A DNA stretch of 801 nucleotides. Origin: Escherichia coli. Its GTDB lineage: Bacteria; Pseudomonadota; Gammaproteobacteria; Enterobacterales; Enterobacteriaceae. The translations under genes were made by a program, and so were the position numbers. Under the pieces are notes generated by a model. It was not told the origin of the DNA and did no database searches. It was given only the letters and a program-made list of their open reading frames with translations. The stretch lies in assembly GCF_003334315.1 (NCBI RefSeq), contig NZ_QOWR01000129.1. One strand, written 5' to 3'. The stretch's first letter is position 1. Every line of letters starts with the position of its first letter. Below are positions 1-801 of this stretch, piece by piece.

Positions 1-149
1 GGTTGAGAAGCGGTGTAAGTGAACTGCAGTTGCCATGTTTTACGGCAGTGAGAGCAGAGATAGCGCTGATGTCCGGCAGTACTTTTACCGTTACGCACCA
101 CCCCGTCAGTAGCTGAACAGGAGGGACAGCTGATATAAACAGAAGCCAC
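1..149 (-). CDS. insA: InsA (IS1 transposition regulator / N-terminal part of the InsAB' transposase), 5' partial: first 49 codons, continues off-window
   Basis: GTG start at 149..147 on the minus strand. Translation is (M)[48 protein letters not shown], open to the window edge. It contains the CxxC...CxxC zinc-finger pattern typical of InsA. The six-frame track misses it because the start is GTG and the ORF runs off the window. Confidence 0.9.
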
Positions 150-156
150 TGGAGCA

Positions 157-160
157 CCTC
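157..160 (-). promoter_or_regulatory. Shine-Dalgarno-like GAGG for insA
   Basis: GAGG on the minus strand, 7 nt upstream of the GTG start codon at 149..147. Confidence 0.5.
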
Positions 161-169
161 AAAAACACC

Positions 170-197
170 ATCATACACTAAATCAGTAAGTTGGCAG
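170..197 (-). promoter_or_regulatory. Putative insA promoter embedded in IRL (-35-like CTGCCA, -10 TATGAT)
   Basis: On the minus strand, TATGAT lies at 175..170 and a weak -35-like hexamer CTGCCA at 197..192, 16 bp apart. This is about 20 bp upstream of the insA GTG start. The insA promoter is known to sit partly inside IRL; exact hexamer assignment here is my inference. Confidence 0.4.
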
Positions 198-204
198 CAT
201 CACC
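182..204 (-). repeat. IS1 left terminal inverted repeat (IRL), about 23 bp
   Basis: Reverse complement of 182..204 is ggtgatgctgccaacttactgat. It is an imperfect inverted match to 349..371 (ggtaatgactccaacttattgat), as expected for the IRL/IRR pair of IS1. Confidence 0.9.
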
Positions 205-348
205 CGCCGTCTCAATAGCCCGGTTGTTGTATTTAATCAATACAGCCTGAAGACGTTCTGAATATTTCCTCTCCTGCACTACATTGTTTTTTGTACGGGA
301 CTGGATACCGTCATTAATCAGTTTTTCCAGCAGCTCTACCGCCAGATT
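205..348 (-). pseudogene. 144-bp internal gene fragment, in frame with no start or stop; tentatively a type I restriction enzyme R-subunit (HsdR) C-terminal remnant, truncated on both sides by IS1
   Basis: Minus-strand translation from 348 to 205 is NLAVELLEKLINDGIQSRTKNNVVQERKYSERLQAVLIKYNNRAIETA (48 codons, no stop). The ...SERLQ...KYNNR.I... pattern matches my recollection of the conserved C-terminal region of HsdR proteins. The HsdR assignment is from memory, not a search. Confidence 0.45.
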
Positions 349-371
349 GGTAATGACTCCAACTTATTGAT
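349..371 (-). repeat. IS1 right terminal inverted repeat (IRR), about 23 bp
   Basis: ggtaatgactccaacttattgat at 349..371 is the imperfect inverted partner of the IRL at 182..204. The insB stop codon (366..364) lies inside it. Confidence 0.9.
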
Positions 372-801
372 AGTGTTTTATGTTCAGATAATGCCCGATG
401 ACTTTGTCATGCAGCTCCACCGATTTTGAGAACGACAGCGACTTCCGTCCCAGCCGTGCCAGGTGCTGCCTCAGATTCAGGTTATGCCGCTCAATTCGCT
501 GCGTATATCGCTTGCTGATTACGTGCAGCTTTCCCTTCAGGCGGGATTCATACAGCGGCCAGCCATCCGTCATCCATATCACCACGTCAAAGGGTGACAG
601 CAGGCTCATAAGACGCCCCAGCGTCGCCATAGTGCGTTCACCGAATACGTGCGCAACAACCGTCTTCCGGAGCCTGTCATACGCGTAAAACAGCCAGCGC
701 TGGCGCGATTTAGCCCCGACGTATCCCCACTGTTCGTCCATTTCCGCGCAGACGATGACGTCACTGCCCGGCTGTATGCGCGAGGTTACCGACTGCGGCC
801 T
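364..801 (-). CDS. insB: InsB (C-terminal catalytic part of the IS1 InsAB' transposase), 5' partial: reading frame open to the window edge, stop at 366..364
   Basis: The track ORF 364..741 ([16 protein letters not shown]...[15 protein letters not shown]) matches IS1 InsB. The same frame stays open upstream of that Met to position 801 ([25 protein letters not shown]...), as expected because InsB is expressed as a frameshift fusion to InsA and not from this ATG. Acidic residues in DEQWGYV, MTDGW and RIERH are consistent with a DDE-type catalytic triad (exact residue assignment inferred). Confidence 0.93.
786..801 (-). CDS. insA: 3' end of insA of copy B (last 5 codons plus stop), overlapping the insB frame
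   Basis: Minus strand from 800 reads ggc cgc agt cgg taa = GRSR-stop, the InsA C-terminus (...LKNSGRSR). The TAA stop is at 788..786, in the 0 frame relative to the -1 insB frame. The fragment is very short, so confidence is moderate. Confidence 0.6.

Follow-up and report, generated by a model that had tools for sequence, protein, structure and literature searches.

The 801-nt stretch of Escherichia coli DNA analysed in this study (the window) consists of the facing ends of two IS1 copies in direct orientation, the left end of one and the right end of the other, with a 144-bp fragment of hsdR, a type I restriction gene, enclosed between them. The history considered most likely, with a probability of about 0.6, is that two independent insertions of IS1 in the same orientation occurred in hsdR. 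The window represents an IS1-disrupted gene of the ordinary kind that is built from known sequences, and the phenomenon itself is already known.

Alignment to annotated copies of IS1, which is among the first insertion sequences ever described, showed that window positions 1–204 are the reverse complement of IS1 nt 1–204 and that positions 349–801 are the reverse complement of IS1 nt 316–768. Both segments lie on the minus strand. The former, hereafter copy B, was 100% identical to nt 1–204 of the IS1 in locus L002; the latter, copy A, was 100% identical to the common IS1B-type sequence in locus L003. When the two arms were re-joined in IS1 order and compared with 5,426 complete E. coli genomes, 100% coverage was obtained on single annotated IS1 copies spanning exactly 768 bp. 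An imperfect inverted repeat of 23 nt was found at 182–204 and 349–371 (78% complementary, arms 144 nt apart), and alignment identity with the ends of annotated IS1 copies identified both arms of this repeat as IS1 termini. Positions 182–204 (minus strand), the IRL of copy B, match in reverse complement the 23 nt with which annotated IS1 copies begin (GGTGATGCTGCCAACTTACTGAT), while positions 349–371 (minus strand), the IRR of copy A, read GGTAATGACTCCAACTTATTGAT and match in reverse complement the 23 nt with which the IS1B copy L003 ends. Each of these two repeats abuts the hsdR fragment.

The coding content of the arms was also that of IS1. Copy B contributes its IRL and, along with the promoter region of insA, the initial 49 codons of that gene, which run from a GTG start at window position 149 down to position 1. 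Copy A contributes the C-terminal 145 codons of the insB frame, which terminates with a stop codon at 364–366, together with the IRR; the InsB C-terminal ORF extends over 364–741(-), and the insB frame stays open up to position 801. The sole promoter-like match in the window, 197->170(-), falls inside the IRL, where the insA promoter of IS1 is known to lie. In summary features, the window resembles IS1 of the IS1B/IS1R type from Enterobacteriaceae in its 100% identity, its 23-bp imperfect inverted repeats, and in having the insA N-terminus and the insB C-terminus on the minus strand at the expected positions and in the expected order. At the sequence level there is no difference from IS1; the window shows only part of each copy, with nt 205–315, including the programmed -1 frameshift site between insA and insB, and the other end of each copy located beyond it, and the left arm belongs to a minority isoform.

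The hsdR host sequence departs from the window exactly at 204/205 and 348/349, which are the terminal nucleotides of IS1. Because both breaks fall exactly at these nucleotides, both are genuine transposition junctions. With 100% identity over 204, 144, and 453 nt, the three-segment structure cannot, as judged from the alignments, be a product of chance. Only the inner flank of each IS1 copy is contained in the window, and the outer ends and the target duplications lie beyond it. The BLAST alignment of hsdR extended 6 nt into IS1, because the host sequence just past the 204/205 junction (CAATCACCTG, L001 5993–6000, corresponding to window 199–204) resembles the tip of the IRL (GCATCACC). This likeness, as well as the CGCC with which both of the candidate target duplications given below begin, is probably due to chance.

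The spacer between the IS1 ends (205–348, minus strand) comprises 48 codons without a stop, translated as NLAVELLEKLINDGIQSRTKNNVVQERKYSERLQAVLIKYNNRAIETA, and was 100% identical to chromosomal hsdR. It corresponds to L001 6001–6144 in strain SA186, that is, to hsdR nt 2635–2778 and amino acids 879–926 of the 1044-aa protein WP_001531245.1, and it is internal to the C-terminal domain T1RH-like_C (Pfam PF11867), which covers HsdR aa 712–1040. Identity and collinearity, the HSDR_N / SWI2_SNF2 / T1RH-like_C architecture of the encoded protein, and the hsdM-hsdS-hsdR operon all indicate that the spacer is a fragment of hsdR. Of the 5,426 complete E. coli genomes, 61 matched the spacer, each at a single chromosomal site that lies within an intact hsdR. 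Identity was at least 99% in 59 of these 61 genomes; the 40 records listed were all 100% identical and all annotated as type I restriction endonuclease subunit R. No match to the spacer was found among PLSDB plasmids, and no spacer-containing match was found among phage records. An exact search with the intact HsdR protein WP_001531245.1 returned 3,301 index blocks, which makes this protein very widespread among public assemblies. The spacer is thus an exact piece of an HsdR subunit of the HSDR_N / SWI2-SNF2 motor / T1RH-like_C type; in contrast to the full protein, however, only 48 of the 1044 codons are left between the IS copies, a non-functional remnant from which no functional protein is possible.

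These results can be compared with an earlier note on this DNA, in which the window was described as IS1 positions of about 316–768 followed by positions 1–204, contributed by two direct copies rather than one, both on the minus strand and separated by a 144-bp in-frame fragment of non-IS host coding DNA. The positions agree exactly with the coordinates obtained by alignment to the 768-bp copies, and the strand agrees with that of the InsB ORF (364–741) and of InsA (149 down to 1); the 48 open codons, with their 100% identity to hsdR, bear out the description of the intervening DNA, and the reading of two copies rather than one is supported as well. Identification of the host gene as hsdR, and the predicted functional consequence, go beyond that note. 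That the segment 205–348 might itself be derived from IS1 had been named there as one of the observations that would overturn this description. Such an origin was ruled out by the 100% identity to hsdR and by the lack of meaningful similarity to IS1, the local alignment score against the IS1-containing locus L019 being 13.

In the intact loci, a tRNA-Leu/integrase genomic island contains an hsdM-hsdS-DUF4268-hsdR operon, which ends with hsdR and in which the DUF4268 gene is inserted between hsdS and hsdR. The island at tRNA-Leu also carries a tyrosine integrase and a phosphorothioate-dependent SBD-HNH endonuclease. The latter, a phosphorothioated-DNA-binding endonuclease with a ScoMcrA-like SBD and an HNH domain, is encoded beside the type I system at L001 3521–4399 and L016 7380–8258. 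As this endonuclease gene adjoins the type I system, the region at tRNA-Leu can be regarded as a multi-defence island.

The two IS1 arms were of different isoforms. The left arm, identical to L002, had 3 mismatches to the common IS1B sequence of L003 (A69, T118, and T124), and its isoform is in the minority, with only 296 of approximately 9,400 matching records being at least 99% identical to it. The right arm was of the common IS1B sequence. The two arms cover non-overlapping parts of IS1 and hence allow no direct comparison between them; the comparison was therefore with other IS1 copies, and no single copy with both arms perfect was found among the 5,426 E. coli genomes and the 5,000 best-scoring plasmid records, the best being 99.4% identical in both. 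Since no such copy was found in these collections, the two copies in the window are probably non-identical elements, and the isoforms are modest evidence that separate donors gave rise to two insertions, rather than that a single element was recently duplicated. Both arms may also derive from gene conversion or from a hybrid isoform of low frequency, as the IS1 in L002 shows that hybrids exist. This element (L002 31–798, E. coli ECCWS199) is 768 bp long and combines the minority left arm (A69/T118/T124) with a right arm that, over the regions compared (IS1 nt 1–204 and 316–768), is of the IS1B type except for a variant IRR at nt 759–761. Its sequence suggests gene conversion between an old variant copy and IS1B.

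The minority left arm is typified by an old IS1 of 735 bp, with a 33-bp internal deletion, which occupies a conserved chromosomal site in E. coli 042 and other strains. In WCHEC035148 and 042 (L019/L020 370–1104; chromosome near 1.17 Mb / 2.77 Mb), this copy lies downstream of another type I hsdR gene, the one encoding WP_001096907.1, at a distance of approximately 30 nt. Its left arm was 100% identical to that of the window, its right arm showed 13 differences, and it has a variant IRR, GGTAATGGTCCC. The conserved 735-bp copy near 1.17 Mb was considered as the identity of copy B and ruled out, as other DNA lies beyond the IRL of that copy. In E. coli ST101, a conserved IS1R is found beside the type I R-M locus RD12 (10.1101/2020.06.07.138552), and the 735-bp IS1 next to the WP_001096907.1 gene may be this same element.

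If two simple insertions took place, both IS1 copies would lie in the gene's own orientation in the 3′ third of hsdR, and the window would be composed of the right end of the upstream copy, 144 bp of hsdR, and the left end of the downstream copy. The second insertion would have entered a gene already inactivated by the first, and the two would have come from non-identical donor copies. Both copies would be full length, with hsdR collinear beyond them and with target duplications of 9 bp (8–10 bp). The candidate duplications, given on the plus strand of the window, are 205–213 (CGCCGTCTC) and 340–348 (CGCCAGATT). Read on the hsdR sense strand, AATCTGGCG is predicted just outside the IRL of the upstream copy and GAGACGGCG just outside the IRR of the downstream copy. 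To the right of position 801, the sequence is predicted to continue with IS1 nt 315–1, then CGCCAGATT, and then TCGATATGGCATATCG (hsdR as in L001 6145 onward); to the left of position 1, IS1 nt 205–768 is predicted, preceded by CAATCACCTGCGCCGTCTC (L001 up to 6009).

Pairs of IS1 copies at this distance are not out of the ordinary. The number of IS1 places per E. coli genome had a median of 11 and reached 68. By our own arithmetic, which assumes uniform random placement, a genome with 30 copies would have a chance of approximately 1–3% of containing some IS1 pair within 150 bp; with thousands of genomes available, close pairs are therefore expected. Direct repeats of 768 bp separated by 144 bp would in turn be a substrate, and a hotspot, for RecA-mediated recombination that deletes one copy together with the 144 bp (912 bp in all), and would be a likely cause of assembly breaks or collapses. 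Because such repeats should recombine readily, the IS1-144 bp-IS1 arrangement is probably evolutionarily young.

Searches for the junctions in other sequences gave the following results. With a junction-spanning query, neither junction was found in the complete E. coli genomes, the best coverage being 59%, which represented the spacer alone, and none reaching 80%. Exact 24-nt junction strings had zero matches in species-representative genomes, metagenome contigs, and viral contigs, and the junctions were absent from PLSDB plasmids and phage records. The complete E. coli genomes likewise included no intermediate in which a single insertion is present. Megablast of the whole window returned apparent two-piece matches of 84–89% in E. 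coli genomes and plasmids; these were discarded, as they represented single IS1 copies matched by both arms. Protein products were looked up in an index of 153 billion genes, in which only an exact sequence is recognized and the same null result is obtained if the source is absent. In this index, exact look-up yielded no record for the fusions of HsdR aa 1–878 to NLAGDAANLLI, NLAVMLPTY, or NLAG, predicted for target duplications of 9, 8, and 10 bp, respectively, none for HsdR 1–926 followed by GDAANLLI (a single insertion or a tandem duplication), and none for the 33-aa ORF crossing the hsdR/IRL junction. Look-ups of C-terminal fragments of 110 and 117 aa did match, and these matches were set aside because they represented an IS1-free hsdR remnant of 117 aa or contig breaks. 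Since only identical sequences are recognized and the index may lack the source, the unrecorded fusion proteins are weak evidence against two simple insertions. The lack of a single-insertion intermediate among the complete E. coli genomes also counts against this history.

As the outer ends of both copies are unseen, the choice among two simple insertions, a rearranged remnant, and a duplicated unit rests on prior expectation and on the isoform evidence. An IS1-bounded remnant, in which at least one copy has lost its original outer flank through IS1-mediated adjacent deletion or through homologous recombination with another IS1, is possible, although we regard it as rather unlikely. Either route, with the recombination taking the form of a deletion, inversion, or translocation, would reduce the 144 bp to a scar cut off from the rest of hsdR and bordered by unrelated DNA past one or both copies, much as small pieces of genes are caught between IS elements in mosaic resistance regions. 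The many IS1 copies per genome would offer ample recombination partners, IS1-associated deletions at hsd loci have been documented, and many genomes carry the 3′ part of hsdR on its own, as a remnant of 117 aa, so that the locus appears rearrangement-prone. The lack of a record for any of the predicted collinear fusion products points in the same direction, but with little force, as it comes from exact-match look-up. No direct evidence indicates foreign flanks, however, and the restriction of the spacer to intact chromosomal hsdR in complete genomes, together with its absence from PLSDB plasmids, argues against such a remnant.

A repeated or circular unit of 912 bp, made up of IS1 plus the 144 bp, would give exactly the observed pattern of IRR, 144 bp, and IRL, and the 801-bp window is shorter than one such unit. 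Such a unit could be a tandem duplication (144-IS1-144-IS1) that arose through unequal crossing-over or when IS1 transposed replicatively from one sister chromosome to the other; alternatively, it could be a circle, released either by recombination or by replicative transposition within one molecule. A recent duplication, however, predicts a single isoform, and the two arms match different ones; a rare hybrid could reconcile the two, as the arms do not overlap. In addition, the product predicted for the duplication, HsdR(1–926) followed by GDAANLLI, is without record, and a circle of this size lacks an origin of replication and would not be expected in an assembly. On these grounds, a repeated or circular unit is considered extremely unlikely. 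Misassembly, in which the contig was mis-joined through collapsed IS1 repeats and one IS1 or none is present at the locus, was judged only slightly more probable. As a repeat present in many copies, IS1 is a classic source of such errors, and neither junction was found in any other public sequence searched. On the other hand, a chimeric join would not place both junctions exactly at the terminal nucleotides of the IRL and IRR, so that each junction must be present in the DNA; the junctions are 144 bp apart and can be spanned by a single 150-bp read or a read pair; and the left arm carries copy-specific minority SNPs (IS1 nt 69, 118, and 124) and not the common-isoform consensus, which argues against a collapsed consensus. 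Two simple insertions into hsdR remain the favoured history.

It had also been proposed in the earlier note that the outer ends could move the whole unit, of approximately 1.68 kb, as a tiny composite element. The idea is legitimate mechanistically, because the direct IS1 repeats of Tn9, which flank cat, can mobilise the DNA between them, and it found no support in the present analysis. Two IS copies do bracket a segment, in the order IS1 right end, 144 bp, IS1 left end and in direct orientation. The junctions, however, were found in no second context among genomes, plasmids, phages, metagenome contigs, and viral contigs, and so gave no sign of movement as a unit; nor is there a functional passenger gene, the segment being 48 internal codons of a 1044-codon gene. 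The likeness to Tn9, Tn1681, Tn6601, and Tn6602 consists in two IS1 copies bracketing a segment, with the direct geometry seen in Tn9. This is different from composites of the Tn9 type in that the bracketed DNA is a 144-bp non-functional gene fragment and not a selectable gene. In E. coli ST101, the IS1-flanked composites Tn6601 and Tn6602 truncate or carry hsd genes, the IS1R-flanked Tn6601 truncating hsdS (10.1101/2020.06.07.138552). The present case resembles RD12/Tn6601 of ST101 in that IS1-type elements disrupt an island-borne, chromosomal type I R-M locus with a predicted loss of activity; it differs in that the target is hsdR instead of hsdS, and in that two IS1 copies lie 144 bp apart with no cargo-carrying transposon visible.

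Insertion of the upstream copy would truncate HsdR at approximately residue 881, with the loss of about 160 C-terminal residues. In EcoKI and EcoR124I, the C-terminal region of HsdR is required for docking onto the methyltransferase core. Because the operon ends with hsdR, no effect on hsdM and hsdS is expected, and the strain should be restriction-deficient and modification-proficient (r- m+). If the flanks are as predicted, the locus would consist of an hsdR pseudogene beside intact hsdM and hsdS, with one restriction barrier lost and self-methylation kept. Such a loss of restriction would bear on plasmid and phage uptake in the source lineage. Beyond annotation at the strain level, the arrangement has little significance, and it adds nothing new to the biology of IS1 or of R-M systems.

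A further breakpoint was found close to the IS1 junctions. The IS1-free 117-aa C-terminal remnant of hsdR is present in the tRNA-Leu island of many E. coli assemblies (142 index blocks), and all of the loci sampled shared a breakpoint at hsdR nt 2758, which is 21 nt from the 204/205 junction. It lies at L008 916–940, at approximately 5977–6001 in L010–L014, and at approximately 2197–2221 in L015, all of these corresponding to window 205–225. There is no IS1 at this breakpoint, and the DNA upstream is unrelated, with GTPase, DUF932, and AlpA genes. L015 (GCA_017594025.1, JADIDS010000003.1) begins at a contig end approximately 2.2 kb upstream of the hsdR remnant, and 1 of 6 IS1 probe sequences matched within this locus.

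With the two IS1 junctions and nt 2758, three independent breakpoints fall within 165 bp of the 3′ part of hsdR. The position of nt 2758 near an IS1 junction may be a coincidence or may mark a rearrangement-prone spot, and the clustering as a whole could be coincidental or could reflect recurrent selection against restriction. It is doubtful that the 3′ end of hsdR is a recurrent, selected target of inactivating rearrangements, or else that the IS1 plus 144-bp unit is a tandem duplication formed by replicative transposition between sister chromatids. If the former were true, the cause could be that variants deficient in restriction but proficient in modification are selected because foreign DNA enters them more easily.

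One internal repeat was also observed in the window. A 25-nt direct repeat, D1, at 317–341 and 398–422 (76% identical), links the hsdR fragment with the insB region of IS1; being a short match in two copies, it is most likely due to chance.
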